Positions 4,780 through 51,100 of a stretch of DNA of 64,000 nt are shown one piece after another. Origin of the DNA: an uncultured Candidatus Saccharibacteria bacterium (GTDB lineage: Bacteria; Patescibacteriota; Minisyncoccia; Minisyncoccales; CAYZYK01). The stretch's first letter is position 1. Every line of letters begins with the position of its first letter. The stretch covers positions 2,144 to 66,143 of the forward strand of contig CAYZYK010000001.1 in assembly GCA_964482615.1 (NCBI GenBank). The letters run 5' to 3'. The position numbers were made by a program, and so were the translations under genes. Under the pieces are notes generated by a model. The model saw only the letters and a list, made by a program, of their open reading frames with translations, did not search any database and was not told the origin of the DNA.

Positions 4780-5301
4780 TTATATCTCCAAAATCTCAAT
4801 ATGAGTTGTTTGAGCCCCAAAGTTTTTTGCTTCAGAATAAGAAGGAAACCAAATATCTATTTGATAATTTCCTTTTCTCCAGTTCATTCTATCTTCGACT
4901 GTAAATATTTTATCACCAAAAAGGTCTGGAATTTTTATCTTTGTGCCAAAGGGTAAATAATTATTTGCTACTATTCCGTCTCTAACTCTTGTTCCAGCTG
5001 CAGTAATAAAAGGGGTGTCATCGGTTTGCCAAACAGAGCTTGAATAAGCAGTAGCAATTACTCTTACTTTCTGGACGGGTTTTGAATCAGGGCTTGTAAC
5101 CTTAGATATTGAAAAAAGACTATTGTTTCCAACAAAAACTAAATTTCCCTCCGATAAAGCAAGGATTTCTTTAATATTAGAACTTACTGTATTTGCTTCA
5201 AACGTTGGCAAAATTCCCAATAAAACTATTGTTCCCATTGAAATAGTTAGGATGTATTTCAAATTGAAAAGATATTTTATATTCTTGTTCATTCTTTTCA
5301 T
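4780..5301 (-). CDS. 3D-domain protein (RlpA/MltA-like cell-wall-binding or lytic domain) with N-terminal signal/TM
   Basis: 173 aa; VIATAYSSSVWQTDDTPFITAAGTRVRDGIVANNYLPFGTKIKIPDLFGDKIFTVEDRMNWRKGNYQIDIWF matches the 3D domain signature (three conserved Asp). Confidence 0.7.
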   Translation of the reverse strand: MKRMNKNIKYLFNLKYILTISMGTIVLLGILPTFEANTVSSNIKEILALSEGNLVFVGNNSLFSISKVTSPDSKPVQKVRVIATAYSSSVWQTDDTPFITAAGTRVRDGIVANNYLPFGTKIKIPDLFGDKIFTVEDRMNWRKGNYQIDIWFPSYSEAKNFGAQTTHIEILEI

Positions 5302-5340
5302 TATATTTATCTAAAATTAACTGTCAACTCCCTTTTTTAA

Positions 5341-7746: not shown

Positions 7747-7822
7747 TGGTGCGCGTGGATGGATTTGAACCATCGACCTTTCGCTTATAAGACGAATGCT
7801 CTAACCCCTGAGCTACACGCGC
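7747..7822 (-). tRNA. tRNA with anticodon UAU (AUA-decoding tRNA-Ile), CCA encoded
   Basis: Acceptor GCGCGTG/CACGCGC + ACCA. D-stem GCTC/GAGC. Anticodon stem TTCGT/GCGAA enclosing loop CTTATAA, so positions 34-36 are TAT. T-arm GATGG-TTCAAAT-CCATC; 76 nt. Confidence 0.7.
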
Positions 7823-10800
7823 TTATTTTTTCTTCTTTTTCTTCTTGTTTTTTTGTATTTTCCGATTATATTTTCGAATTCTTCTCTTTCTATAGTTTCT
7901 TTTTCAATTAAAGTTTGAGCTAACTTATTAAGTAGTTTTTTATTTTTCTTTAAAACCTTTGTTGCTTCTTTTTCAGCAGCCTTTATAAATTTACTTATTT
8001 CTTTATCAATCTTAGAAGCTACTTTTTCAGAATAATCTTTTTGTTCTGCCATTTCATTGCCCAAAAATACCATTTCTTCTTCTGATCCGTAGGTTACAGG
8101 CCCTAGAGAAGACATACCATATTTTTTAACCAATTTACGAGCTAATTGAGTTGCTGTCTTAAGGTCGTTTGATGCTCCGGTAGTTATTTCTCCAAACTTT
8201 ATATTCTCAGCACAATATCCACCCAATAAGGTGGTGAGTTCTGCTGAAAATTCAGACTTAGTTTTCATTTTTTTCTCCTCTCTTGGCATTTTCAAAGTAT
8301 AGCCCGCTGCCATGCCCCTGGCAATTATTGATATTTTCCTAACAGGTTCTGCTTTGGGAGAGAAAGTAGAAGCTAAAGCATGTCCTGCCTCGTGAAAAGC
8401 AGCTATTTTCTTTTCTTGCTCAGACAAAACGTGACTTTTTCTTTCGGGTCCCAAGAGAACCTTTTCAATTGATTCTAATAATTCTTCTTGATGAACTTTA
8501 GATTTGTTTCTTTTTGCAGCAAGTATAGCTGCTTCGTTCATTAAATTGGCTAAATCAGCTCCCGAAAATCCTGGAGTTCTTTCTGCTACTTCTCTTAAAT
8601 TACAATCCGAATCTAAAGGTTTTCCTTTAGAATGAATTTTTAATATCTTTTCTCTGTCATTTATATCAGGTAGATTTAAGACCACTCTCCTGTCAAACCT
8701 CCCTGGTCTCAAAAGAGCGGGGTCTAAGACATCGGGTCTGTTCGTTGCTGCAGCAACGATAATAGAAGATTCTCTCTCAAAACCATCCATTTCAGTTAAA
8801 ATCTGATTCAATGTTTGTTCTCTTTCATCGTGACCCCCACCAATTCCAGCTCCTCTTCTTCTGCCAACAGCATCCAGTTCATCAATGAAAACAATGGCTG
8901 GTTGGTTCTTTTTGGCAGTAGAAAATAAATCTCTTACTCTACTGTTGTGCAAAAGAGTTGGTTTTTCTCCACCAAAGAAAGCTTCATTTTGGCAACCACA
9001 AAGATCATAAACATAGCCAGAGTAGGGTCTTTTTGTAACCTTTTTAACAATTGGTTTCTTGAGTTGATTGGGGGAATTTTTAATTTTTCTAAATGGATGA
9101 GAGGTCTTTCCAATTCTAAGAACCCAATAGGTAGTCTGAGGAAGGGGTCTGTCCTTAGTTTTTCTTCCTTTTTTAGTTTTGGCCTCTCTAATACTTGCTT
9201 GTATTCCATGCATTGCACAAAGCCAAGCTAATTCTTTGATAAGTTGATGACTCACAGAACTGACAGTTAGCCTTCCTTCTTGGGTAGTGTATCCATCTCC
9301 TCTATAAAGCCCCTTTAAATAATTTAAAAAGTAATTTTTGGGTAGTTCCCATAGGAATTCAGGAATATGCTTGTGGTGACTACCATTTCCACAATGTTTT
9401 TCAAAAAATTCTCCCAATACTTTACCAAAAAAAGCAATTCTACAACTATTGTCTTCAGTAAAAGTTACATATGGTTCTTGGTTAGTTAATAATTTATTCA
9501 TTAAAGAAATACAATCTTGATGAAGTTTTTTTTCATGGCTGCCAAATATAAATTCTACTCCATATTCAATTTTTCTTCCTTCAGCGGTATAATATCCTAG
9601 AAGTTTCATTAAAGAGGGGGTGGTTTTTATTTCCTGAGGAATTTCTCTTTCCTGATAATTCTTCGCTAACCAAAGGTCCCTAGGTTGATATTTATTTCTT
9701 TGCCAATTGCTGATTGTTGTTTGAGATACTCCAAGTTGGTCAGCTAATTCATGTTGGTAAACTTTTCCTTGTCTAGCTAAAGCAAAACTAAATTTTTCTT
9801 CTAACTCCTCAATCTCAAAATTTTTATTCCATATCGGTAGAACCTTCTTTTTTGTTTTTTTGAATTGATGAGATTTTACTTTGTGGGTTGTTCCAACTCC
9901 AGGCACAAAAGTACTTCTTACCTTGAAAGGTAAATTAACTAGGATATCTCCAGGATTTAAGTCTTTTGCTTTTTTTGGGGTAATAAGATTTCTAGCTCGC
10001 ACAAACACGCTGTGATCACCGGTGGTTTTAATTTTTCCTCCTAAATATTTAATTTCATAAATTTCATCAACTTTATGGCGATAAACACCTTTTATTTGTT
10101 GCCAACAACTTCTTCCAAAAAACTTCTTAGTTGAGTTTTTAGAAGCACTCCCAAATTTTGTATCTAAAGATTTGTATCCTAAAGTTTTTATCCCTATAAC
10201 TGGAATTACATAATCGTCTTTTTTTTGAGGGTAGAATTGATCAACAAGCTCTGAGATTGGCAAAAGCTTGGTCTCGTTTTCAGTTTTAACTAATATTGGA
10301 GTATCACCAGTTACACTGGCTCCGACTCCGACAAATAACTCAATAAATTCAGAACCAGAAATTGAATAAAAGGGTACTTTAGCTTCGTTTGCTACCGCTC
10401 TGGCTAATAAGGTTTTTCCGGTTCCAGGAGCGCCCACCAGTAGTATTCCTTTAGGAATTCTTGCCCCCATTTTTAAATATTTCTTTGGCTTTTTTAAAAA
10501 ATCAACTACCTCTTTTAATTCTTCTTTGGCGTTTTCAAGTCCTGCAACGTCGTCAAAAGTAACCTTTTCTTTAGTTCCGCCCTTGGCCCCAAACAAACGG
10601 GCTTTTGCTTTCGAAAAATCAAGAGCCTGCATAGCTCCACCCTTAGCGCGCCTTAAGAGCAACCAAAAGAAAATTCCGAAGACAGCCAGAGGTAATATTC
10701 CAAAAATTAATAAAGGAAATAACCAAGAACTTAAACTTTCTTTTTTTTCTTCAACCTCAATTGTTAATTGGTTTGATTCTGTTAATTGGTTTAATTTTTC

Positions 10801-11070
10801 TTTTTCGGTCCCATAGGTTACAAGGGCTTCAAACAGGGGAGTGTCTGATTCTTTTCGGGAGATTGCCTTTTCATCATTTTTGTAGAAAACAGTTAATTCT
10901 TCCCCCGCAACAATAATTTTTTTAACCTCTTCTTGATTAATTTTTTTTGCTAATTCTGTTATACTAATCTTATTTTCGGACTCAAAGGGCTGGGCAACTA
11001 AACTAAAAACGCCTCCGATTATGAGAAAAATCAGGATTATGAAAATAAAGTTTTTAATTAATTTATTCAT
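7813..11070 (-). CDS. ftsH: ATP-dependent zinc metalloprotease FtsH, containing a ~458-aa intein between Walker A and Walker B
   Basis: N-terminal TM plus GILLVGAPGTGKTLLARAVANEAKVPFYSISGSEFIELFVGVGA|[intein]|SRVRDLFSTAKKNQPAIVFIDELDAVGRRRG...; zinc site FHEAGHAL; C-terminal protease domain. The stop TAG at 7815-7813 overlaps the 5' end of the adjacent tRNA by ~10 nt. Confidence 0.9.
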   Translation of the reverse strand: MNKLIKNFIFIILIFLIIGGVFSLVAQPFESENKISITELAKKINQEEVKKIIVAGEELTVFYKNDEKAISRKESDTPLFEALVTYGTEKEKLNQLTESNQLTIEVEEKKESLSSWLFPLLIFGILPLAVFGIFFWLLLRRAKGGAMQALDFSKAKARLFGAKGGTKEKVTFDDVAGLENAKEELKEVVDFLKKPKKYLKMGARIPKGILLVGAPGTGKTLLARAVANEAKVPFYSISGSEFIELFVGVGASVTGDTPILVKTENETKLLPISELVDQFYPQKKDDYVIPVIGIKTLGYKSLDTKFGSASKNSTKKFFGRSCWQQIKGVYRHKVDEIYEIKYLGGKIKTTGDHSVFVRARNLITPKKAKDLNPGDILVNLPFKVRSTFVPGVGTTHKVKSHQFKKTKKKVLPIWNKNFEIEELEEKFSFALARQGKVYQHELADQLGVSQTTISNWQRNKYQPRDLWLAKNYQEREIPQEIKTTPSLMKLLGYYTAEGRKIEYGVEFIFGSHEKKLHQDCISLMNKLLTNQEPYVTFTEDNSCRIAFFGKVLGEFFEKHCGNGSHHKHIPEFLWELPKNYFLNYLKGLYRGDGYTTQEGRLTVSSVSHQLIKELAWLCAMHGIQASIREAKTKKGRKTKDRPLPQTTYWVLRIGKTSHPFRKIKNSPNQLKKPIVKKVTKRPYSGYVYDLCGCQNEAFFGGEKPTLLHNSRVRDLFSTAKKNQPAIVFIDELDAVGRRRGAGIGGGHDEREQTLNQILTEMDGFERESSIIVAAATNRPDVLDPALLRPGRFDRRVVLNLPDINDREKILKIHSKGKPLDSDCNLREVAERTPGFSGADLANLMNEAAILAAKRNKSKVHQEELLESIEKVLLGPERKSHVLSEQEKKIAAFHEAGHALASTFSPKAEPVRKISIIARGMAAGYTLKMPREEKKMKTKSEFSAELTTLLGGYCAENIKFGEITTGASNDLKTATQLARKLVKKYGMSSLGPVTYGSEEEMVFLGNEMAEQKDYSEKVASKIDKEISKFIKAAEKEATKVLKKNKKLLNKLAQTLIEKETIEREEFENIIGKYKKTRRKRRKNKRV
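8944..10317 (-). mobile_element. Intein in FtsH (Ser1 ... HN, +1 Ser) with a LAGLIDADG homing-endonuclease domain and an HTH motif
   Basis: Extein sequence FVGVGA / SRVRDLF is contiguous in intein-free FtsH. The insert starts SVTGDTPILVK and ends YVYDLCGCQNEAFFGGEKPTLLHN. Internal motifs are LLGYYTAEGR and YLKGLYRGDGY (LAGLIDADG pair) and HELADQLGVSQTTISNWQRN (HTH). Boundaries were checked at nucleotide level: codon AGT at 10317-10315 and AAC at 8946-8944. Confidence 0.8.
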
Positions 11071-11180
11071 TCTTTCTTAAAACTAATATTAGACGATTAT
11101 TTTTATCCTCTATGCCTTATACAATAGCAGAAAAATTCTCAGAAATCAACTCTAAATTATAATTAAATTAAAAAGAAAAG

Positions 11181-11945
11181 TCCCCCGCGGGATAGCGCAA
11201 GGGACTCGGGATAGACAGGGATTATAGGTTTGTAAGAGGTTAGTTGGCGTTCACGACGTTCTCCAGGAAGCTGATAGCTTTCTGGAACGTCCTAAGAATT
11301 TTATACGTGCGGTTGCCCTCGACTTTCTCCCAGAAGGCTTTCTTTCTCTGGGCAGCCTTCTGTTTGAGGTCGCTTAGGTAGATGCTCTTCTTTTCGCAGG
11401 CAAACTCCAATTCGGCCCAGGCGACGTTAAAGGCCACTTGGTCCAAGATTCGGTATCCCTCCCACACCCGGGGATACATAGCTTTGCACCTTCGCAGAGT
11501 TTCCTCGGGTATGGAACTTGCTGCGGTCCTTCGGGCCCACTCCGTCAAGGAATTGGTACCCTCGATCTCCTCGATTTCCTCAAGAGAACCGGAGATGAGA
11601 AGTTGTTCTATCTCCTTTCTCTGGTCCTCAAAAGAGCTGTAGCAGGCCCCACAGACGATGTCCTGTATTTTCTGCTTCTCCTCCCCGCAGACCGGACAGG
11701 ACCGGATTAGCTTTTCGGCCTCGTCCAGGACCGGGTTGAGCTCTTTCTCAACCCATGCGCGAAGATCTTCGCGGCTGGCGCCGTAGCCCAGATTCTGGGG
11801 AACCTGGGGGTCTTCCTGTCCGTTTATTTCTTTCACGTAAGGGCTTTGCTGATGGGTGTTGGTACCCATTTGATTCTTCCTCCTTGAGGTTGGATTGCGT
11901 CGAAACTACGCTACTGTGGACCTATCCCTATCCCTGTCTATATTA
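11181..11945 (-). mobile_element. Compositionally foreign GC-rich island (about 55% GC against ~33% background) bounded by imperfect inverted repeats sharing ATAGACAGGGAT (left 11205-11225, right 11920-11945). It contains one ORF and its own terminator.
   Basis: The GC shift is abrupt at both edges. Left end: GGGATAGCGCAAGGGACTCGGGATAGACAGGGATTATAGG. Right end is the reverse complement of CCTAATATAGACAGGGATAGGGATAGG. Hairpin AGTCCC...GGGACT (11181-11207) is followed on the minus strand by TTTTCTTTTT, a terminator for the internal ORF. No transposase was recognised. Confidence 0.55.
11240..11869 (-). CDS. Hypothetical 209-aa acidic protein with a C-x2-C-x11-C-x2-C zinc-ribbon. Foreign GC3-rich codon usage, perfect Shine-Dalgarno.
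   Basis: AAGGAGGAAGAATCAAATG start context. Codons are mostly G/C-ending (cag, ccc, ggc, cgc, ctg), unlike all neighbouring genes. Motif SCPVCGEEKQKIQDIVCGAC. No family recognised. The overlapping plus-strand ORFs in the track are high-GC artefacts. Confidence 0.6.
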   Translation of the reverse strand: MGTNTHQQSPYVKEINGQEDPQVPQNLGYGASREDLRAWVEKELNPVLDEAEKLIRSCPVCGEEKQKIQDIVCGACYSSFEDQRKEIEQLLISGSLEEIEEIEGTNSLTEWARRTAASSIPEETLRRCKAMYPRVWEGYRILDQVAFNVAWAELEFACEKKSIYLSDLKQKAAQRKKAFWEKVEGNRTYKILRTFQKAISFLENVVNAN

Positions 11946-11957
11946 GGTACTATTCCT

Positions 11958-11986
11958 ATTATAACTTAAAACAAAAAACTTGTCAA
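11958..11986 (-). promoter_or_regulatory. Consensus sigma70 promoter (TTGACA-17-TATAAT) on the minus strand, reading into the island. Its -35 overlaps the 3' stem of the rpsA terminator hairpin.
   Basis: Minus-strand read: CTTGACAAGTTTTTTGTTTTAAGTTATAATAGG. -35 at 11986-11981, -10 at 11963-11958. The rpsA terminator ACTTGTC-N9-GACAAGT+T-run (11977-12000) overlaps it. Confidence 0.45.
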
Positions 11987-12030
11987 GAGTTTAGACAAGT
12001 TAATAGAAATTTATTATTTCCAAAAAGATA

Positions 12031-14317: not shown

Positions 14318-16789
14318 ATGGTAAAATCTACAGAACAAAAAAACAAAATAGGCGAGGTTAAAGAGAGGAGAATAACAGAGGAGATGAAAGAAAGTTACAT
14401 TGATTATGCAATGTCTGTTATTATTTCAAGGGCTTTACCCGACGTAAGGGATGGATTGAAACCTGTTCACCGTAGGATTCTTTATGCTATGTACGAGATG
14501 GGACTGAGACACAATGGCAGGTTTAGAAAATCAGCTACTGTGGTTGGTGACACCTTGGGTAAATACCACCCTCACGGCGATGTAGCAGTTTATAATGCTC
14601 TAGTAAGAATGGTACAAGATTTTTCATTAAGATTGCCCCTTATTAGCGGCCAAGGAAACTTTGGGTCTCTTGATTCTGATCCCGCAGCCAGCATGAGATA
14701 TACAGAGTGCAGATTATCTCCAATTGGCGAGGGAATGTTAGCAGATATTGAAAAAGACACCGTTGATTTTATAGATAACTATGATGGAACAAGAAAAGAA
14801 CCCGTTGTTCTTCCTTCTCCCGTTCCTCAACTTTTATTAAACGGAGCTTTAGGAATTGCTGTTGGAATGGCAACCAGCATTCCTCCTCATAATCTATCTG
14901 AAATATGTAATGCTTGTTCTCATCTTATTGACAATCCCGATACTGAAACCTCAGATCTTTTTCAATTCATTAAAGGGCCTGATTTTCCTACTGGGGGAAT
15001 AATTTACAATAAAAAAGGAATGATTTCTGCTTACTCCCAGGGCAAAGGAAAGATTGTTTCCAGGGGAAAGGCTGATATAAAGAAAAAAAAGAAAGGTGGC
15101 GCTCAAATTGTGATTACTGAAATTCCTTATCAAGTTCAAAAGTCCAGCTTGGTTCAGAAAATGGCTGATTTAGTTTCCAACAAGAAGATAAAAGGAATAA
15201 GAGATATTAAAGATCTATCTGACAGGGAGGGTATGAGAATTTTGATAGATGTTAAAAAAGGAACTTCCCCTCGCAGGGTTTTAAATCGTCTCTACAAATT
15301 CACTGATCTTCAAAAGAATTTCTACTTGAATATGTTGGCTTTAGTTGATGGAATCCAACCCAAAATTCTTTCTTTAAGCGAAGCTCTCAATTACTTTATT
15401 GAGCATCGAAAGGAGGTTGTGAAAAGAAGAACTAAATTTGATTTGGAAAAAGCTAAGACAAGAGCTCATATTCTTGAAGGATTAAGTATTGCCATAAAGA
15501 ATATTGATAATGTTATAGCAACAATTAAAAAATCATCTAACAGGGATAAGGCAAAAACTAACTTAAAAAAGAAGTTTAAACTTTCCAACAAACAAGCAGA
15601 AGCTATTTTACAGATGAGGCTCCAATCTTTGGCCAAGCTTGAGAGAGAAAATATTGAGAAAGAACTTAAAGAAATAAAAGAAAAGATTAAAGAGTTAACC
15701 ACTATTCTAAAAAGCAAAAAGAAAATAAAAGGAATTATTAAAAAAGAACTTGAAGAAATAAAGAAAGAATACGGCGATGAAAGAAGAACAGAAGTTATTA
15801 TTGGAGGAATAAAAGAAATAAAAGAAGCAGATCTAGTCCCCCTTCAAGAAACCATTATTACTTTAACCGAAGGAGGTTATATTAAAAGATTAAAGCCCGG
15901 AACCTATAAGATTCAGAAAAGGGGAGGTAAAGGAATAATAGGAATGAAAACTATGAAGGGTGATATAGTAAAACATTTTGTCTCGGCCTCAACCCATGAT
16001 AAACTGCTTTTTTTCACCGACACAGGAAAGGCCTTTCAAACTAAAGTTTATGAGATTCCAGAAGGGAAGAGGGTAGCCCGAGGAAGAGGATTGGTTAACT
16101 TCTTGGATATTTCACCAAGAGAAAATGTACTTTCTTTGGTTCCCTTAAAGAAAGAAGAAGAGAAGGGGATAAAATATTTGGTTATGGTCACCAAAAATGG
16201 TAAAATTAAGAAAACGAAATTAGAGAAATTTAAAAACGTCAGAAGAACTGGAATCAGAGCTATAAAGTTGGGAAAAGGAGATTTGGTAAGAAAAGTCGTA
16301 AAAACAACAGGAAAAGATGAAATAATCTTAATTACCAAGAAAGGAAAATCAATAAGATTCAAAGAAAAAGAAGTAAGATCTATGGGAAGGGCAACTTATG
16401 GCGTAACAGGAATAAAACTGAGAAAGGGAGATGAAGTCATAGGTATGGATGTTATTCATAAAAAAGAAGACAAAAAGACAAAGAAGAAAAAATCAGTATT
16501 GGTAGTTACAGAAAAAGGTTATGGAAAAAGAACTAAACTTTCAAAGTACAGGACCCAAAAAAGAGGTGGAATAGGAATTAAGACAGCAAATATTACCAAA
16601 AAGACAGGAGAGATAGTTATCTCCAAAGTTCTGAGTTCAGAAGAGAAAGATCTGATTGTTATTTCTCGAAGAGGTCAGGTGATAAGAATTAAAATTAATT
16701 CTATCTCAACTCACAACAGAGCCACTCAGGGAGTAAGAATAATGAGATTGAAAGAAGGAGACGAGGTGGCTTCTGGAACCTGTATCTAA
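14318..16789 (+). CDS. gyrA: DNA gyrase subunit A (no intein)
   Basis: 823 aa; [33 protein letters not shown], active-site Tyr region, C-terminal beta-pinwheel repeats. Confidence 0.9.
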
Positions 16790-16802: not shown

Positions 16803-17315
16803 ATGCTTAACCCAGAACAGGTTTTAAATAACCTTCAGTTAAAAGCAAATATGTCAGCTACAGAATTTGGTTCTGGAGCTGGAGGATTCAGTATTCCCCT
16901 AGCTAAAAGACTGAGACAGGGAAAGGTTTATGCTTTGGATATTCTAGAAGAGAAACTATCTGCTTTGAAGAATAAAGCAACCTTAGAAAAAATAGCAAAC
17001 ATTGAAACTATAATTTGTAACTTGGAAGCAGAAAAAGGATCTACCCTGCACAGAGAAAGCCAGGACATAGTTTTAATACCTAATATTTTGTTTCAAGCAG
17101 AAGATGAGGAGTCTATGATGAAAGAAGCTAAAAGAATCTTAAAACAAGGAGGTGAACTCCTTGTTTTAGATTGGAAAAAAGAATCTCCGCTTGGTCCCAG
17201 AGAGGGGAGAATTTCAAAAGAAGAAGTTAAAGAAATTGCAGAGAAAATAGGCTTGAAACTAAAGAAGGAATTTTCACCGGGTGATTACCATTATGGTTTG
17301 ATTTTTACAAAATAA
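16803..17315 (+). CDS. Class I SAM-dependent methyltransferase
   Basis: 170 aa; motif I EFGSGAGGFSIPLAK, acidic residue after beta-2 (YALDIL), LVLDW motif. Confidence 0.65.
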   Translation: MLNPEQVLNNLQLKANMSATEFGSGAGGFSIPLAKRLRQGKVYALDILEEKLSALKNKATLEKIANIETIICNLEAEKGSTLHRESQDIVLIPNILFQAEDEESMMKEAKRILKQGGELLVLDWKKESPLGPREGRISKEEVKEIAEKIGLKLKKEFSPGDYHYGLIFTK

Positions 17316-17333
17316 TTAATTTATAATATATTA

Positions 17334-17663
17334 ATGAAAAAATTAATTCTTCTTTTAATAATATTGACCGGTTTATCATTTTTTTCATTTACCGAAGCCG
17401 TTAAAATAAAGAACCCTTTAAATGTTGACACTTTTGACGATCTCATTGATGCAATCGCGGGAATAATTGAATTAATTGTTGGTTCTCTGGCTGTTTTAAT
17501 GTTAATAATTGCTGCGATTTATTTTATTACAGCAGCAGGGGATCTCAACCAGATTAGCCAAGCAAAAACTATGGTAAAATATGCCATAATAGGAGTTATT
17601 ATTGCTTCTATGGCCCGAGCTATAGGGACCGTAGTTGAATCTCTTTTAAAAACAGCTCCCTAA
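17334..17663 (+). CDS. Small secreted two-helix membrane protein, TrbC/VirB2 (T4SS-pilin)-like, array member 1
   Basis: 109 aa; signal peptide then two hydrophobic helices around loop ITAAGDLNQISQAKTMVKYA. Same architecture as members 2-9. Confidence 0.45.
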   Translation: MKKLILLLIILTGLSFFSFTEAVKIKNPLNVDTFDDLIDAIAGIIELIVGSLAVLMLIIAAIYFITAAGDLNQISQAKTMVKYAIIGVIIASMARAIGTVVESLLKTAP

Positions 17664-17774
17664 GTTATTAACAGCGCCCTGTTGATAAGTTTCTTAATAT
17701 CCTCTAAAATATTACAATATAAAACCTAAAGGTCGAAATAAAGATTTTATAAATTACAAAAATAAATATTAATC

Positions 17775-18095
17775 ATGAAAAGAATAATATCTACCTTAAT
17801 TCTCAGCAGTCTATTGGCTTTACCTGTCGTGGCTGCAGCTCAAATTGGAGAACCCTCCCCACCCACTGACATTATTGCTATTCTTCAGACAATAAAATCA
17901 ATAATCTGGGCTGCCTTCACTGTTTTTGCTATCATTATGTTTATTTATGCTGGAATACTTTTCTTTACCGCAGGTGGTGATCCCGAAAAAGCAGCCAAAG
18001 CAAAAAGCGCTGTTATTTTCGGTGTAGCTGGAATAGCAATAGCTGTGTTGGGATATGGAATAGTTCAGATCGTTATGGGTATTATGGGTGCTTAA
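17775..18095 (+). CDS. T4SS-pilin-like small membrane protein, array member 2
   Basis: 106 aa; MKRIISTLILSSLLALPVVAAAQ signal, then helix-loop (FTAGGDPEKAAKAKSAVIFG)-helix. Confidence 0.45.
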   Translation: MKRIISTLILSSLLALPVVAAAQIGEPSPPTDIIAILQTIKSIIWAAFTVFAIIMFIYAGILFFTAGGDPEKAAKAKSAVIFGVAGIAIAVLGYGIVQIVMGIMGA

Positions 18096-18235
18096 TACTG
18101 AATTTAAGCTAATTTTTCTAACAACAATGAATTCTAAGCCATGATTTTGAAGGTGGCTTAGAATTCATTTATTATGTATAATAGATTATAATAAAAGTCG
18201 AGTACCATCATTATAATAAGACACAAAGAAAAATC

Positions 18236-18556
18236 ATGAAAAGAATAATATCTACCTTAATTCTCAGCAGTCTATTGGCTTTACCTGTCGTGGCTGCAGC
18301 TCAAATTGGAGAACCCTCCCCACCCACTGACATTATTGCTATTCTTCAGACAATAAAATCAATAATCTGGGCTGCCTTCACTGTTTTTGCTATCATTATG
18401 TTTATTTATGCTGGAATACTTTTCTTTACCGCAGGCGGTAATCCAGATAGCGTTGCTAAAGCAAAAAGCGCTGTTATCTTTGGAGCAGCAGGAATAGCAA
18501 TAGCTGTGTTGGGATATGGAATAGTTCAGATCGTTATTGGCATTATGGGTGCTTAA
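18236..18556 (+). CDS. T4SS-pilin-like small membrane protein, array member 3. Near-identical to member 2 except in the inter-helix loop.
   Basis: 106 aa; first ~68 codons are DNA-identical to member 2, then GNPDSVAKAKSAVIFGAAG replaces GDPEKAAKAKSAVIFGVAG. Confidence 0.45.
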   Translation: MKRIISTLILSSLLALPVVAAAQIGEPSPPTDIIAILQTIKSIIWAAFTVFAIIMFIYAGILFFTAGGNPDSVAKAKSAVIFGAAGIAIAVLGYGIVQIVIGIMGA

Positions 18557-18714
18557 AAGAGAAGTAACACAGAGAATTCAATTGAAGTTGAATTTGACAA
18601 ATTTCAATTCAAAGATTAAATTTAGAGAATAGAAAATAATTTTAAATTTTTGGTATTCAAAAGGTCGCTAAACCCTGTTAAGGTAAAATTTAAGCTATAA
18701 AAATAAAAGAGAAC

Positions 18715-19041
18715 ATGAAAAGATTACTGTTATTTTCGGTTATTGTTTCTCTTGTGGGATTACCTTTGGTGACGGCTGCTCAAAACCCCCCTGGTTCAGG
18801 TTGGGCGTCAAGCTTTAGTGATATGTTTAATAATGTGATAGCTGAAGTATGGTTGATTTTCGTTGCTCTTGCTATTGTCCTGTTCATTTATGCGGGTGTT
18901 TTGTTTCTGACAGCATCCGGGAATCCAGAAAGAATCACCAAGGCGAAAAGCGCTTTTTTGTGGGGTATAGCTGGTGTTGCAGTGGCTATAATTGCTTTCA
19001 CAATAATTCAACTTGTGGGAAATTTGTTGGGAGCTTATTAA
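18715..19041 (+). CDS. T4SS-pilin-like small membrane protein, array member 4
   Basis: 108 aa; YAGVLFLTASGNPERITKAKSAFLWGIAGVAVAII. Confidence 0.45.
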   Translation: MKRLLLFSVIVSLVGLPLVTAAQNPPGSGWASSFSDMFNNVIAEVWLIFVALAIVLFIYAGVLFLTASGNPERITKAKSAFLWGIAGVAVAIIAFTIIQLVGNLLGAY

Positions 19042-19216
19042 CCAGAGATAAGAGATATAGAATCCCTGTTTAAAAAATTTGTTTTAATAAAGAATGAATA
19101 AGCTCTAATCCATTATAATTTTTGGATTGAGCTTATTTTATTAGACAAGATTTTTCTTTTAAGATAAAATAGAGGAAGCAAAAGGCAGAAATCAAAGATC
19201 TAAATAATATTTTAAG

Positions 19217-19531
19217 ATGAAAAAAATATTGATTACTTTAATATTATTAAGCATCTCAATATTTCCCTTGGGAGCTGAAGCCCAGATTATTATAGGTAAT
19301 ATTACTTGGCCTCAGCTTGTGCTTGGTCTTACAACAGCTATGTGGTCTGTTTTTGTTGGAGTTACAATAATAGCCTTTTTATACGCTGGTATATTATTTC
19401 TTACTGCCTCGGGAGATCCTCAGAAAATCGATAAAGCAAAAAAGGCGGTTATCTGGGGAATTGCTGGAGTAGCAGTAGCTTTTCTTGCTTATACTATAAT
19501 TAATATAGTAGGATATATGTTGGGGGCTTAA
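19217..19531 (+). CDS. T4SS-pilin-like small membrane protein, array member 5
   Basis: 104 aa; YAGILFLTASGDPQKIDKAKKAVIWGIAGVAVAFL. Confidence 0.45.
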   Translation: MKKILITLILLSISIFPLGAEAQIIIGNITWPQLVLGLTTAMWSVFVGVTIIAFLYAGILFLTASGDPQKIDKAKKAVIWGIAGVAVAFLAYTIINIVGYMLGA

Positions 19532-19572
19532 ACCCCTTAAAGTCAAAGAAACTTTAATCTAAAAGATAAAAG

Positions 19573-19884
19573 ATGAAAAAAAACTTATTTCCCATATTTT
19601 GTTTGGTATTTTTAATAATCCCCGCAATCATGTCTGCTGCTGTAGTCAGCAGTGGAAGCTCAAGTTTAGACAAAATAATTATAGGTGTTGTAAATGCGGT
19701 AGCCGCTGTAGCTACTGCAGCAGCGGTTATTAGTCTTCTTTATGCTGCAATACTTTTTCTTACTGCTTCTGGTGAACCAGACAAAATTACAAAAGCAAAA
19801 AAAGCTTTTCTTTGGGGTATAGCTGGTGTAATAATAGCAATTATAGCAAGCTCTATATTTACTATAGTTGGCTATTTTTTATAA
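19573..19884 (+). CDS. T4SS-pilin-like small membrane protein, array member 6
   Basis: 103 aa; YAAILFLTASGEPDKITKAKKAFLWGIAGVIIAII. Confidence 0.45.
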   Translation: MKKNLFPIFCLVFLIIPAIMSAAVVSSGSSSLDKIIIGVVNAVAAVATAAAVISLLYAAILFLTASGEPDKITKAKKAFLWGIAGVIIAIIASSIFTIVGYFL

Positions 19885-19902
19885 AAATAAAAAAACCAAG
19901 AG

Positions 19903-20292
19903 ATGAAAATTAAAAAAACTTTCTTTTTTCTAATCTGTGTTTTTCTTTTCTCTTTGCCTTTTGTAACTAATGGGTTAGATATTCAAGAGACAGCGCCAGG
20001 ACCCAAGCATTGGGCTTTTGTAGAGAGCGGATTGGCTAACATATTGAGTTGGGTTGCCACTATTGTGGTTTTGGGATTTCTTGTTTACGCTGCTATTTTG
20101 TTTGCTATAGCAGCAGGGGAACCAGACAAGATTTCCAAAGCAAAGAAAATGTTTCTTTATGCGATAATAGGAATAGTGGTGATCCTAATAGCGTTTATAA
20201 TTAGAATAATAACAAGCGAAACATTTAAAAACTTTACTTGGGAATTCAATGCTTGGGAGCCTATAAAAGATTTTTTAAAAGGTATTTTTTAG
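19903..20292 (+). CDS. T4SS-pilin-like small membrane protein, array member 7 (with extra C-terminal tail)
   Basis: 129 aa; YAAILFAIAAGEPDKISKAKKMFLYAIIGIVVILI plus C-terminal ETFKNFTWEFNAWEPIKDFLKGIF. Confidence 0.45.
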   Translation: MKIKKTFFFLICVFLFSLPFVTNGLDIQETAPGPKHWAFVESGLANILSWVATIVVLGFLVYAAILFAIAAGEPDKISKAKKMFLYAIIGIVVILIAFIIRIITSETFKNFTWEFNAWEPIKDFLKGIF

Positions 20293-20325
20293 TCTTAATA
20301 AATCTTTAATTTTTTATCTCTAATA

Positions 20326-20667
20326 ATGAAAATTGAAAAATATTTTTCTGTATCTATCCTCCTAATGATTTTTTTACCTTTATTACCCGCTGCAGTCATG
20401 GCAGCTTGGGGAATACAGGATGCACCTACTGCAATAGATAGCTGGAATAAAATAGGTAACGCTATTCTCCTTCCAATTTACGCTATTGCTGTGGCAACAA
20501 TAGTAATCATGTTTTTTTACTCAGCTATTTTGTTTGCTACGGCAGCAGGGGAACCAGACAAGATTTCCAAAGCAAAGAAATCGTTTCTCTGGGGATTAGT
20601 TGCCGTGATTGTTTTGATTATTGTTCCCGTTATAATCACAATAATGAGAGAGATAACAGGCATTTAA
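20326..20667 (+). CDS. T4SS-pilin-like small membrane protein, array member 8
   Basis: 113 aa; YSAILFATAAGEPDKISKAKKSFLWGLVAVIVLII. Confidence 0.45.
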   Translation: MKIEKYFSVSILLMIFLPLLPAAVMAAWGIQDAPTAIDSWNKIGNAILLPIYAIAVATIVIMFFYSAILFATAAGEPDKISKAKKSFLWGLVAVIVLIIVPVIITIMREITGI

Positions 20668-20723
20668 CCTTTAATCAAAAAATGTTAGATTTTTTAAAAA
20701 GATTAACTAAAAGCTATTTAAAT

Positions 20724-21023
20724 ATGAAAAAGACTTTACTCTTTTCAATTATTCTTGTTGTTCTGGTCTTTCCTCTTGTAACTGATGCTGTTGATGTTAC
20801 TCCGATTAAAGAAAAAATAGAAAGCGTTTCGGATGTAGCTTGGACTATTGCTGGTACACTTGCTGTTGTCATGCTTATTTATGCTGGAATTTTATTTGTT
20901 ACAGCAACAGGAGAACCAGAAAAACTAGGGAAAGCAAAAAAAGCTTTCATTTGGGGTATTACGGGATTGATTCTAGCTATTTTAGCTAATACGATAGTAA
21001 GTATGATAGTAGATAATTTATAA
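20724..21023 (+). CDS. T4SS-pilin-like small membrane protein, array member 9. ATG at 20724 (MKKTLLFS...) preferred over the track start at 20682.
   Basis: YAGILFVTATGEPEKLGKAKKAFIWGITGLILAIL. The signal peptide is only sensible from the internal ATG. Confidence 0.45.
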   Translation: MKKTLLFSIILVVLVFPLVTDAVDVTPIKEKIESVSDVAWTIAGTLAVVMLIYAGILFVTATGEPEKLGKAKKAFIWGITGLILAILANTIVSMIVDNL

Positions 21024-47869: not shown

Positions 47870-47897
47870 TTGACAAAACTTTTAAAAAGAATATAAT
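47870..47897 (+). promoter_or_regulatory. Consensus-like promoter (TTGACA-16-TATAAT) about 260 nt upstream of rpoB
   Basis: -35 at 47870-47875, -10 at 47892-47897. Followed by a small hairpin AAATGCT-GAAA-AGCATTT at about 47934-47952. Confidence 0.35.
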
Positions 47898-48158: not shown

Positions 48159-51100
48159 ATGGCAGAAGATATCAACAATATCACCAAAACAAAAAGTTTC
48201 TCAAAATCAAAAGTTTCTTTTCCCCTCCCCAAACTAACTTATCTTCAAAGACAGGCCTGGAAAGATTTTTGGGAAGTAAGATTAAAGGAACTTTTCTCTG
48301 AGGTTTCTCCTATTTTAGATCATAATGGAGATGAATTTGAGCTTTGGTTTTTAGATTATAAGCTGGGCAAGTCAAAATACAAGAATGGTCTTGAAGCTAA
48401 ACTTAACGACGATTCTTATGAAGCTCCTCTAAGAGCTAAAGTTAAATTGGTAAATCTTAGGAGCAAAGAGATAAAAGAACAGGAAGTTTTCTTAACTAAT
48501 TTTCCCCTTATGACAGAAAAGGGGACTTTTGTCGTTAATGGGGTGGAAAGAGTGGTTGTTTCTCAAATTATCCGGTCTCCGGGTGCTTTCTTTACTGTCA
48601 ACAGATACAAAGGGAAAGAATACTTCGGGGCAAAAATTGTTCCCAATAGAGGAGCTTGGCTTGAATTTTCAACTGAAAGTTCAGGTTTTATTGGGGTTAA
48701 AATTAACAGAAAAAGAAAAGTTGCCGCTACCACTCTTCTTCGAGCTTTTGGAATAGAGAAAGATAAAGAGATTAAAGAAAAATTTAAAGATTTAGACAAG
48801 GGGGAGGTAAAATATATTGAGAAAACTTTAAAAAGAGACAATTCTTCTGATCAAGGTGAAGCATTAATGGAGATTTATGGCAGGTTAAGACCCGGAGCTT
48901 ATGTTACTCCAGATAATGCTAAAAGCTTGATTTTTAATATGTTCTTTAATTTCAACAGGTATGATTTAGCTAAAGTTGGAAGGTGGAAAACCTATCAAAG
49001 ATTACCACAACTTGCCCCCAAGAAGAAAAGCAAAGATATTAAAAAAGGAGAAAGGGTATTGAAAGTAGAAGATGTTGTTGAGGTGATAAGAGAAATTATT
49101 AGATTAAACAATAATCCTCAAGCAGAACCTGATCAAATTGACCATTTAGCTAATAGAAGAGTAAGGACATCAGCCGAACTTTTGGAAAACAGGCTTAGGG
49201 TGGGGATGATGAGAATGATGAGGATAATAAAAGACAGAATGTCAACTCTAGATACAGCAACTGTTACCCCAGTTCAGCTTATTAACTCAAGACCTTTTAT
49301 GGCGGTCGTTAGACAATTCTTCTTCTCTTCTCAGTTTTCTCAGTTTATGGATAACGAAAATCCTTTAGCTGAGATTGAACACAAAAGAAGAATTACAGCA
49401 ACAGGACCCGGAGGATTAACTAGAAGAAGGGCAGGGTTTGAAGTAAGAGATGTTCAGCCCTCACACTACGGTAGGATCTGCCCCATTCAAACCCCAGAGG
49501 GTCCTAATGTGGGATTAGTTAATCACCTAGCTTGTTTTGCCAGAATCAATCCTTTCGGTTTCATAGAAACTCCCTATTTCAAAGTAGAGAAAGGGAAAGT
49601 TACTGATAAAGTAGAATATCTTTTAGCTAACGAAGAAGAAAAATACAATATCGCTCCAGGATCAGTTCCTTTAGACAATAAAGGTAATATTGTTGCTAAA
49701 AAAGTGGAAGCCAGGATAAAAGGGAAACCAGGAGAGATTGAAGCTAAAAAGATTGATTTTGTTGATGTTTCTTCCAAACAATTTATTAGCGTGGCTACAT
49801 CCCTTGTTCCTTTTTTACAGAATGATGATGCAGCCCGCGCTCTTATGGGATCTAATATGCAGAGACAATCAGTTCCATTGGTTAACCCAGAACCACCTCT
49901 TGTTGGTACAGGGGTGGAAAGAAATGTTGCTCAGGATTCTGGACAACAGATTTTTGCTGAAGAAGCAGGAAAAATAAAAGAAGTAGATGCTGAGCATATT
50001 AAGATAAAAGTAAAAAACAAAAGAAAAGAGAGAGAATACAAAATTCATTCTTTTGTTCGTAGTAACCAATATACTTGTTTCCACCAAAGACCCCAAGTGA
50101 AGAAAGGACAAACTATCAAAAAGGGAGATGTTCTAGTAGATGGTGCTGCTATTTCTAAGGGAAGATTAAGTTTAGGTAAAAATATTTTAGTTGCTTTTCT
50201 TCCCTGGAGAGGAGGGAATTATGAAGATGCTATTGTGGTTTCAGAAAGATTAGTTAAAGATGACGTTTTTACCTCTATTCACATTCAGGAATTTACTTGT
50301 GATGTAAGGGAAACAAAACTCGGTCCTGAGATTACAACCTCTGACATTCCTAATGTTGGGGAAGAGAAATTGAAAGATTTGGACGAAGAGGGAATTATAA
50401 GTATTGGAGCTGAGGTGGGGCCAAACGATATTTTAGTTGGCAAAATTTCACCGAAAGGAGAAACAGAACTTACAGCAGAAGAGAGATTGCTCAGAGCAAT
50501 TTTTGGTGAAAAAGCAAAAGAAGTAAAAGATACATCCTTAAGAATGCAGCACGGAAAGAAAGGTAAAGTGGTGGGGGTTAAAGTATTTTCTAGAGAAAAG
50601 GGCCAGAGACTAGATCCCGGAGTAATAAAAAGGATAAGGGTTGAGGTTGCTGAAATCAGAAAAGTTAAAGTTGGAGATAAGATTTCTGGAAGACACGGAA
50701 ATAAAGGTGTTATTTCTAAGATTTTACCGCCCGAGGAGATGCCTTTCTTGAAAGATGGAACACCAATTGATCTTATCTTAAGTCCTCTTTCTGTTCCTTC
50801 TCGCATGAATATTGGTCAGATTTTGGAAACTCATTTGGGTTGGGCAGCTAAAAAATTGGGCTATCTTGCTATCTCACCTGCTATGCTTGGAGCAAGCGAA
50901 GAAGACATTAAAGAAGAATTAGAGAAAGCAGGCCTTCCAAGATCAGGACAAATAACCCTATATGATGGAAGAACAGGAAAACCTTTCCCCAGAGAAGTTA
51001 CCGTAGGATATATGTATATGCTTAAGCTTATTCACATGGTTGACGATAAAGCACATGCTCGTTCTATCGGACCCTATTCTTTAATAACCCAACAACCTCT

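Follow-up and report, generated by a model that had tools for sequence, protein, structure and literature searches.

We analyzed a stretch of 64,000 nucleotides (nt) from an uncultured Candidatus Saccharibacteria bacterium (contig CAYZYK010000001.1; hereafter the window), in which an island rich in guanine and cytosine (GC) lies between the minus-strand genes rpsA and ftsH. An earlier note, made from the sequence alone, had taken this island for a mobilized foreign gene bounded by terminal inverted repeats (TIRs). The island is instead probably the complete native transcription unit of a single-copy, hypervariable gene, here called X, whose message is selected for structure and closed by a helix between its 5' and 3' untranslated regions (UTRs).

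In 200-nt windows, the GC content rose from 0.27–0.28 to 0.49–0.57 across ~11200–11900 and then returned to 0.26–0.28, which bears out the jump that the earlier note had placed at ~11181–11940. The only other 200-nt windows with a GC content ≥0.50 were tRNA clusters; two protein-coding spots reached 0.47. The minus-strand open reading frame (ORF) of 209 aa had GC contents of.55,.38, and.68 at the first, second, and third codon positions (GC1, GC2, GC3), respectively. The GC3 of the 48 other ORFs of the window (≥120 aa) was.254 ±.024, which places X at z = 18, and the deviating codon usage reported before is thus real. The transcription unit comprises the following features:

11978..12002, minus strand: intrinsic terminator of rpsA, a hairpin followed by a U run, AACTTGTC-N9-GACAAGTT (also written AACUUGUC-N9-GACAAGUU), read from the sequence
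11958..11986, minus strand: predicted X promoter, sigma-70-type TTGACA-17-TATAAT, 12/12 positions matching
11870..11951, minus strand: 5' UTR of X, its transcription start inferred from the promoter
11941..11930 (extensible to 11921), minus strand: 5' arm of the predicted closing helix, within the 5' UTR
11885..11879, minus strand: Shine-Dalgarno (SD) sequence AAGGAGG, with a spacer of 9 nt to the ATG of X
11240..11869, minus strand: ORF of gene X, 209 aa, C4 zinc ribbon plus helical bundle, its coding RNA unusually structured
11211..11228, minus strand: 3' arm of the predicted closing helix, AUCCCUGUCUAU at 11222..11211 plus CCUAU at 11228..11224, between stop codon and terminator
11168..11207, minus strand: predicted intrinsic terminator of X, a 12-pair stem (11207..11178) followed by a U run

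The −35 hexamer of the X promoter lies within the 3' arm of the rpsA terminator hairpin, as the earlier note had described. Perfect TTGACA-N16-18-TATAAT promoters occur three times in the 64 kb, compared with 0.06 expected, and this promoter type therefore appears native to the genome. The second (5300–5327, minus strand) overlaps the 5' end of the ORF at 4780–5301, whose start is a mechanical longest-ORF choice with the true start probably further downstream; the third (47870–47897, plus strand) lies ~260 nt upstream of a large ORF starting at 48159. Among the 49 long ORFs of the window, X alone has a strong SD sequence, and 45 of them have no SD-like motif at all. The AAGGAGG itself and its absence from other starts had thus been recognized correctly, whereas its distance to the ATG is 9 and not 7 nt. 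Promoter, SD, and the hairpin-plus-T-run terminator, which was likewise found as described, support a putatively self-contained unit equipped for strong expression.

By its pattern of substitutions, X is a protein-coding gene: the ratio of nonsynonymous to synonymous substitution rates (dN/dS) was 0.22–0.5, differences by codon position decreased in the order third > first > second, and conservation extends to the SD, the ATG, and the zinc ligands. The dN/dS, the codon periodicity, and the conservation of SD and ATG led us to reject a non-coding RNA. The predicted product is a small protein that looks cytoplasmic and combines a C4 zinc ribbon with a helical bundle; no hydrophobic segment was found in the X proteins (160–209 aa). 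The motif C58-x2-C61-x11-C73-x2-C76 is present as previously noted, its CxxC-x11-CxxC is invariant in the X family, and the window protein is indeed acidic (pI 5.24). AlphaFold2 modeling with a six-sequence alignment placed a bundle of long helices after a zinc knuckle (pLDDT 78.5, pTM 0.68; pLDDT 46.7 with the single sequence). In agreement with the earlier failure to place the protein in a family, searches against Pfam, PHROGs, NCBIfam, and PADLOC yielded nothing above threshold, with the best Pfam zinc-ribbon families Zn_ribbon_3, DZR_2, and Prok-RING_1 scoring 13.3, 13.1, and 12.4 bits at cut-offs of 27–29; a PDB sequence search gave E values of at least 0.1, and a fold comparison gave no significant match. 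Weak matches to LmuB and Cas10 (PADLOC), Flavi_capsid, and bL32 were treated as coiled-coil or zinc-finger noise.

The inverted repeats and the folding of the X message

The inverted repeat consists of ATAGACAGGGAT at 11211–11222 and its complement at 11930–11941 and is perfect over 12 nt (two occurrences versus 0.21 expected, and nowhere else in the window); GGGATAG units adjoin both arms. The repeats that the earlier note had seen thus exist, but they do not bound the GC-rich segment because the GC-rich terminator lies outside the left arm. At the RNA level they would form a UTR–UTR helix of 12–13 bp, extensible to 17 bp. Orthologous loci carry equivalents: in L003, a perfect 11-nt complement (GCCAAATAGGG/CCCTATTTGGC) connects the 5' UTR with the segment just after the stop codon, and L004 has a perfect 13-nt version. 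The arms occupy the same positions in the window group and in group B (the P0004 family loci, comprising P0004–P0008 plus L014 and L015), namely the start-to-SD interval and the stop-to-terminator interval, while their sequence differs. Repeats that keep their place in the transcript as their sequence changes are the signature of an RNA helix rather than of transposon ends.

The duplex energies calculated for 5' UTR and 3' UTR were −27.0 (window), −20.6 (L003), and −24.1 kcal/mol (L004), values equaled by 1, 0, and 0 of 2000 shuffles, respectively. In the minimum-energy and centroid folds of the full transcripts from the same three loci, the arms pair with each other and enclose the ORF; the central pairs of the window helix had probabilities of 0.9–1.0 at 37–65 °C. 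Within group B, the closing helix is invariant except for a change from U-A to U-G at the outermost pair, which is neutral in RNA yet a mismatch in DNA and therefore supports pairing at the RNA level. X thus shares with mRNAs that have a functional 5' UTR–3' UTR interaction both a UTR complementarity beyond chance and a pairing that is kept despite sequence change, in two independent versions. We conclude that the supposed TIRs are the arms of a predicted, conserved helix closing the mRNA.

The 3' UTR of the window allele opens with an anti-SD-like CCUCU (11234–11239, minus strand, adjoining the stop codon); in the RNAduplex prediction, this motif pairs with the SD. The 3' UTRs of L014–L017 open with CCUCC, the anti-SD-like motif is absent in L018, and the SD is unpaired in the L003 fold. 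Sequestration of the SD by an internal CCUCC in group B was considered and dropped, as this CCUCC is not conserved in L004.

The coding sequence (CDS) itself folds far more stably than expected. Compared with dinucleotide shuffles, the CDS alone gave z-scores of −6.2 (window), −9.8 (L003), −7.9 (L004), and −9.1 (L018), whereas eight control genes ranged from −1.1 to +1.6. The folding energy per nt was −0.33 to −0.38 kcal/mol for X alleles versus −0.18 to −0.23 kcal/mol for controls. When synonymous codons were permuted, with protein and codon usage held fixed, the z-scores were −4.4 (window), −6.7 (L003), −9.1 (L004), −9.4 (L018), and −6.7 (L015), compared with −1.7 to +0.9 for control genes. 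Since neither protein nor codon usage can account for this excess, the synonymous sites of X appear to be arranged for base pairing. The GC excess resides mainly in GC3 (.68 versus.25 in the window lineage,.36–.46 versus.21–.33 in group B). A sliding scan of L003 with 300-nt windows (also used in the other scans) revealed four low z-scores in succession over X (−3.3 to −6.5), the background being −0.64 ± 1.75.

Homologous internal helices are partly shared within group B, with some compensatory changes. A single internal fold common to both groups was rejected, and what is conserved is accordingly compaction and the closing helix and not a specific fold, which points to a role in stability or compaction rather than to a ribozyme-like RNA. 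Rfam models gave nothing at gathering score in the window or in L004, and at a permissive E value only chance-level matches (window island, E 4.4–9.8; best for L003, 0.097, to a microRNA model).

Other segments with z-scores of −3.6 to −6.6 were observed in L003 (13951–14250, 19201–19500, 15601–15900, 16501–16800, and 3751–4050) and on the minus strand of the window (16901–17350 and 17951–18400). They are mostly intergenic, one lies over rplS, and they may represent leaders, terminators, or unannotated small RNAs.

Relatives, divergence, and allele exchange

A word-indexed search of 5.8 billion proteins retrieved as sole match a sequence identical to X, present on two contigs (L001, NCBI GCA_964507665.1; L002, Logan SRR7048227) that belong to one other organism and likewise carry it between rpsA and ftsH. 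When 1.84 billion representatives were searched exhaustively with HMMER, a single further true relative emerged, the distant P0004 (160 aa; E = 1e-14 and 25% identity to X in pairwise BLASTP); positions invariant between the two include CPxCG, K, DIVCxxCY, W, PE, W..GN, and ISF. A profile search of the 5.8-billion-protein set gave no further family members, and no relatives were found among viral contigs, phage records, or plasmid records.

The gene order in group B is gyrA, a small ORF, a metallo-beta-lactamase-fold gene, rpsA-X-ftsH, and further on rplS wherever flanks were recovered, at 60% (RpsA) and 63% (GyrA) identity to the window. All 10 loci carry X, between rpsA and ftsH wherever flanks were recovered, and every sampled relative that shares the synteny holds a homologue in this slot. 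The group-B loci also share the architecture of the unit, with a −35 TTGACA in the rpsA terminator stem (seen in L003, L004, L014, and L015), a AAAGGAGGA SD, the UTR complement, and a terminator hairpin directly after it; the window promoter can be aligned with those of its group-B orthologues. The predicted consensus promoter and the strong SD are thus conserved attributes of X. With this slot taken by a homologue in each syntenic relative, X is, as far as gene order tells, native to the rpsA-ftsH locus. The case that the earlier note had set against its own proposal, a conserved gene at this locus in the relatives, is therefore what was found. A scan of genome contigs for RpsA retrieved only distant genomes of the candidate phyla radiation (CPR; 43–48% identity), whose synteny differs and which are uninformative as empty-site controls. 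Judged by these searches, X occurs in a single lineage only, namely in a small clade of AT-rich CPR bacteria whose samples come largely from hot springs; one group-B sample stems from the Chocolate Pots hot spring at 40–51 °C (PMC6137239).

Between ftsH and rplS, L003 (12879–13583) and L015 carry a PIG-L family gene with its own AAGGAGG SD, the only other strong SD seen across these SD-poor loci; in L004, L001, and the window, this position lacks the gene.

Within this conserved frame, X diverges rapidly. Among five strains whose flanks differ by 0–3 per 100 nt, X differs by 5–20 per 100 nt; this excess sets in near the start codon and is over by the stop codon, while the UTRs and the arms stay conserved. 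Between L003 and L015, X had a dS of 0.17 and a dN of 0.055, compared with 0.02–0.04 and ~0.001 in rpsA, ftsH, and the beta-lactamase-fold gene; between L003 and L004, the values were 1.11 and 0.25 versus 0.32–0.58 and 0.013–0.045 in flank genes. Five close alleles consist of mosaic haplotype blocks, with 133 of 276 site pairs failing the four-gamete test, and the variable sites showed transitions and transversions at 40:16. This spectrum and the haplotype blocks indicate ordinary divergence plus recombination and not mutagenesis of the type exerted by diversity-generating retroelements (DGRs). X as a DGR target was rejected on these two grounds and because no reverse transcriptase was found within ±10 kb of the X loci.

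A recent exchange was found in comparison with the other organism represented by L001 and L002. The features concerned are:

10388..11916 (L001 10054–11582), no strand assigned: tract identical to L001/L002, 1,529 nt at 100% identity, flanks at 75–80%
7813–11070, minus strand: ftsH of the window, interrupted by an intein of ~453 aa from nt 10317 (codon 252) to ~codon 705

The tract begins inside the 5' UTR and continues through X and the X-ftsH spacer into ftsH, of which it includes the first 683 nt. Identity over 1,529 nt amid flanks of 75–80%, together with the mosaic blocks, implies that X alleles move between strains and species by homologous recombination. The tract ends ~70 nt before the intein insertion (10318/10317), on the 3' side of which the divergence between window and L001 is ordinary. 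It looks like a gene conversion limited by, or triggered at, the intein heterology: the ftsH intein, which contains the Pfam domains Intein_splicing and LAGLIDADG_3 (a LAGLIDADG endonuclease), is absent from ftsH in L001, L002, L003, L004, L014, and L015. An assembly chimera is a possible alternative explanation of the tract; it would require two joins via identities of 20–26 nt, and L001 and L002 independently carry the allele in their own context.

A gyrA intein is present in L001 and L002, and the window gyrA (14318–16789) has none. Tandem arrays of short paralogues resembling pilins of type IV secretion systems (PF18895) adjoin a methyltransferase gene and gyrA (window, ~17700–21000; L001, 1–3015), with copy numbers that differ among the window, L001, L003, and L004. 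A tRNA-Ile with anticodon UAU (7747–7822, minus strand) lies in a tRNA cluster directly downstream of ftsH.

Proposed mechanism and rival explanations

In the reading we favor, the whole X message would be selected for extensive base pairing, and its GC3 enrichment would be the compositional footprint of this folding selection in a genome of 33% GC, as in tRNAs. A strong native promoter would fire from within the rpsA terminator, and the nascent RNA would fold into many local helices; once the 3' arm is made, the transcript ends would pair and the terminator would form. Such a closed mRNA would offer ribonucleases few single-stranded AU-rich sites and no free ends, and would for this reason be expected to be long-lived. 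Because its GC-rich structured leader could not use the unstructured AT-rich initiation route of the other genes, translation would need to rely on the strong SD, which would couple the stability of the mRNA to initiation, as in Bacillus subtilis hbs. The nuclease protection and the SD dependence are inferred from this analogy. The coding sequence would meanwhile diversify fast and be reshuffled by homologous recombination among strains, the window allele having recently been exchanged with another species in the 1.5-kb conversion tract. As a conjecture, this fast diversification and the cross-species exchange point to conflict with phage, host, or competitors.

Several observations weigh against this reading. 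The window allele reached local 300-nt z-scores of only −1.1 to −2.9, and its GC3 of 0.68 lies far above the 0.36–0.46 of group B; selection for structure may thus not wholly explain the GC3 of the window allele, part of which could stem from a GC-richer relative by import or from GC-biased gene conversion at a hotspot of recombination. Covariation within the CDS is modest, with 6 pairs changed on both sides compared with 2.4 ± 0.9 in the shuffle control, and the window allele and group B have only 0–14 of ~150–200 internal pairs in common. The closing helix exists in only two independent versions (window group and group B) and hardly varies within group B, so that its covariation amounts to one arm swap plus the U-A/U-G changes. 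The mosaicism could be inflated by metagenome consensus assembly. Finally, the proteins of group B are basic (pI 9.2–9.5), and this flip from basic to acidic means that the function of the protein may not be conserved.

The strongest competitor, which we consider unlikely though well worth weighing, is a xenologous replacement at a native locus. Homologous recombination would have brought in the GC-rich allele that the window and L001 have in common, the donor being an unsampled, GC-richer clade member with the same architecture of the locus, and the GC content would mirror the composition of this donor. The high GC3, compared both with the genome and with group-B alleles, speaks for it, as do slightly raised GC1 and GC2, the acidic protein with its N-terminal extension of 45 aa and its insertion of 13 aa, the mosaic structure of the alleles, and their demonstrable passage across species boundaries. 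However, no donor or intermediate was found in the 5.8 billion clustered proteins, the 1.84 billion representatives, or a scan of Joint Genome Institute (JGI) metagenomes. The GC edges match the transcript, with none of the enrichment reaching rpsA or ftsH, the homology arms such an import requires; both the promoter and the first part of the 5' UTR are AT-rich and alignable with group B. Neither does the distance between the alleles demand an import: with the dN of X ~12 times that of its neighbors, 25% identity is expected under vertical descent at 60% RpsA identity. Moreover, the synonymous codons of the allele are still optimized for folding (z = −4.4).

Rather improbable, in our view, is a farther-reaching version of the favored reading, according to which X represents a novel type of conflict locus in ultra-small CPR bacteria: a constitutive, 'armored', self-closing message whose compaction is selected in its own right, encoding a diversifying zinc-ribbon product that is exchanged between species. 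Compaction may then help the message to survive ribonucleases of host, phage, or the cell itself, or to persist through dormancy or transfer. RNA architecture and protein hypervariability would belong to one and the same adaptation to an arms race, in which the protein may also bind the RNA that encodes it. The earlier note had proposed an anti-defense, host-interaction, or toxin/regulator role; its fast evolution fits conflict or a regulator.

We assign a small chance to a functional RNA, that is, a dual-function or 'armored' transcript that serves as decoy, scaffold, or part of a ribonucleoprotein with its own zinc-ribbon protein, the ORF being half of the function. Structure z-scores as large as those of structural RNAs in all alleles, a GC content as high as in tRNAs, and the basic group-B proteins, which plausibly bind nucleic acid, are in line with this. 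The internal helices, however, are unconserved between the two groups, Rfam gave no match, the window protein is acidic, and nothing demands more than stability.

It is very unlikely that X is an invertible, phase-variable cassette in which the repeats act as recombinase sites around the ORF and inversion away from the outside promoter turns X off. The geometry of promoter, repeat, ORF, and repeat fits, repeat positions are conserved, and hypervariability is typical of many phase-variable genes. On the other hand, all 10 assembled loci show one orientation, no recombinase was found within ±10 kb, the U-A to U-G change in the arms is tolerated in RNA but a mismatch in DNA, and the arms lie inside the predicted transcript and are paired in every predicted fold.

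A shade less credible still is a toxin-type 'stable inert mRNA' resembling hok or aapA1, in which 5'–3' pairing silences the message until processing and X is an effector of growth arrest or abortive infection. Long-distance 5'–3' pairing together with very high structure is a hallmark of type I toxin mRNAs (PMC5416894), the CCUCU of the window 3' UTR can pair with the SD, and X is hypervariable and horizontally exchanged. X is nevertheless a soluble protein of 160–209 aa and not a hydrophobic peptide of <60 aa, and all relatives have it at one fixed locus. Neither a conserved antisense promoter nor a conserved antisense RNA was identified, with promoter-like matches on the opposite strand at chance level; the SD is unpaired in L003, and L018 lacks the anti-SD-like motif.

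The original proposal of a foreign, TIR-bounded cargo gene mobilized in trans can hardly be upheld: the perfect 12-nt repeat, the GC jump, the self-contained expression signals, and the identical copy in a second species are set against homologues in the same slot of all syntenic relatives, a single copy in 64 kb with no empty site among 10 of 10 occupied loci, outer flanks (ACTCGGG/ATTAGGT) that are not direct repeats and hence no target-site duplication, no transposase within ±10 kb of the X loci, the GC-rich terminator (11178–11207) outside the left arm, an identical tract that starts in the 5' UTR and runs ~680 nt into ftsH and thus mismatches the repeats, and no phage, plasmid, or viral-contig relatives. 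What stands of that proposal is the horizontal movement of alleles, as seen in the identical tract.

For annotation, these results mean that a high GC content and inverted-repeat ends do not suffice to mark an island in an AT-rich genome as mobile DNA, since selection on mRNA structure can leave such a footprint. For RNA biology, X would represent unusually strong folding selection on synonymous sites across an entire bacterial CDS (z to −9.4) combined with a conserved UTR–UTR helix, and its lone strong SD on a structured message offers a natural experiment on initiation and stabilization of structured mRNAs. For CPR biology, a clade-restricted, probably highly expressed, hypervariable gene with alleles that pass between species is well suited as a candidate phage- or host-interaction factor, a class almost unknown in CPR bacteria.

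Comparison with known systems

Like cassettes of miniature inverted-repeat transposable elements or insertion sequences, X has short inverted repeats near both ends of a compositionally odd segment. Unlike them, it is single-copy in the window and comes without target-site duplication, transposase, or empty site, and its repeats lie inside the transcript and change their sequence together between orthologues.

Recombining arms-race loci within conserved flanks include allele-swapping specificity or immunity genes. X resembles them in a divergence of about tenfold that of the flanks confined to one gene, in mosaic alleles, and in identical alleles across diverged backgrounds; it differs in that no tie to a known defense, surface, or toxin family was found and in that its protein looks cytoplasmic.

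The type I toxin mRNAs hok and aapA1 are highly stable, compact, and closed by a long-distance 5'–3' interaction (PMC5416894). The toxins are hydrophobic peptides of <60 aa, controlled by antisense RNA and activated by 3' processing, whereas X encodes a soluble zinc-ribbon protein of 160–209 aa, and no antisense partner was identified.

In Staphylococcus aureus icaR, a segment of the 3' UTR reportedly pairs with the 5' UTR of the same mRNA; this pairing is said to cover the SD, to repress translation, and to recruit RNase III. The window allele is similar in that its 3' UTR starts with CCUCU and could pair with the SD. Unlike in icaR, the conserved arms of X are located upstream of the SD, and some alleles lack the anti-SD-like motif.

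The closest characterized analogue of the predicted X mRNA is B. subtilis hbs, with icaR and the type I toxin mRNAs being more distant. In hbs, a 14-bp interaction between 5' UTR and 3' UTR together with a strong SD controls the access of RNases Y and J1, and the initiating ribosome at the strong SD protects the mRNA (PMC5737220; Braun, Durand & Condon 2017). Like X, hbs is monocistronic, and it encodes a small, abundant protein. Whereas hbs is highly conserved, the protein of X is hypervariable and has no relationship to HU; X is known here from sequence and predicted folds. X corresponds to hbs in its UTR–UTR helix of similar length, its AAGGAGG, its own promoter, and its own terminator. It differs in that its whole coding region is abnormally structured and GC-enriched and in that the genome is otherwise devoid of SD sequences. 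What is new in X is that a known kind of mRNA architecture, the pairing of the two UTRs, is extended to a structuring of the whole message.

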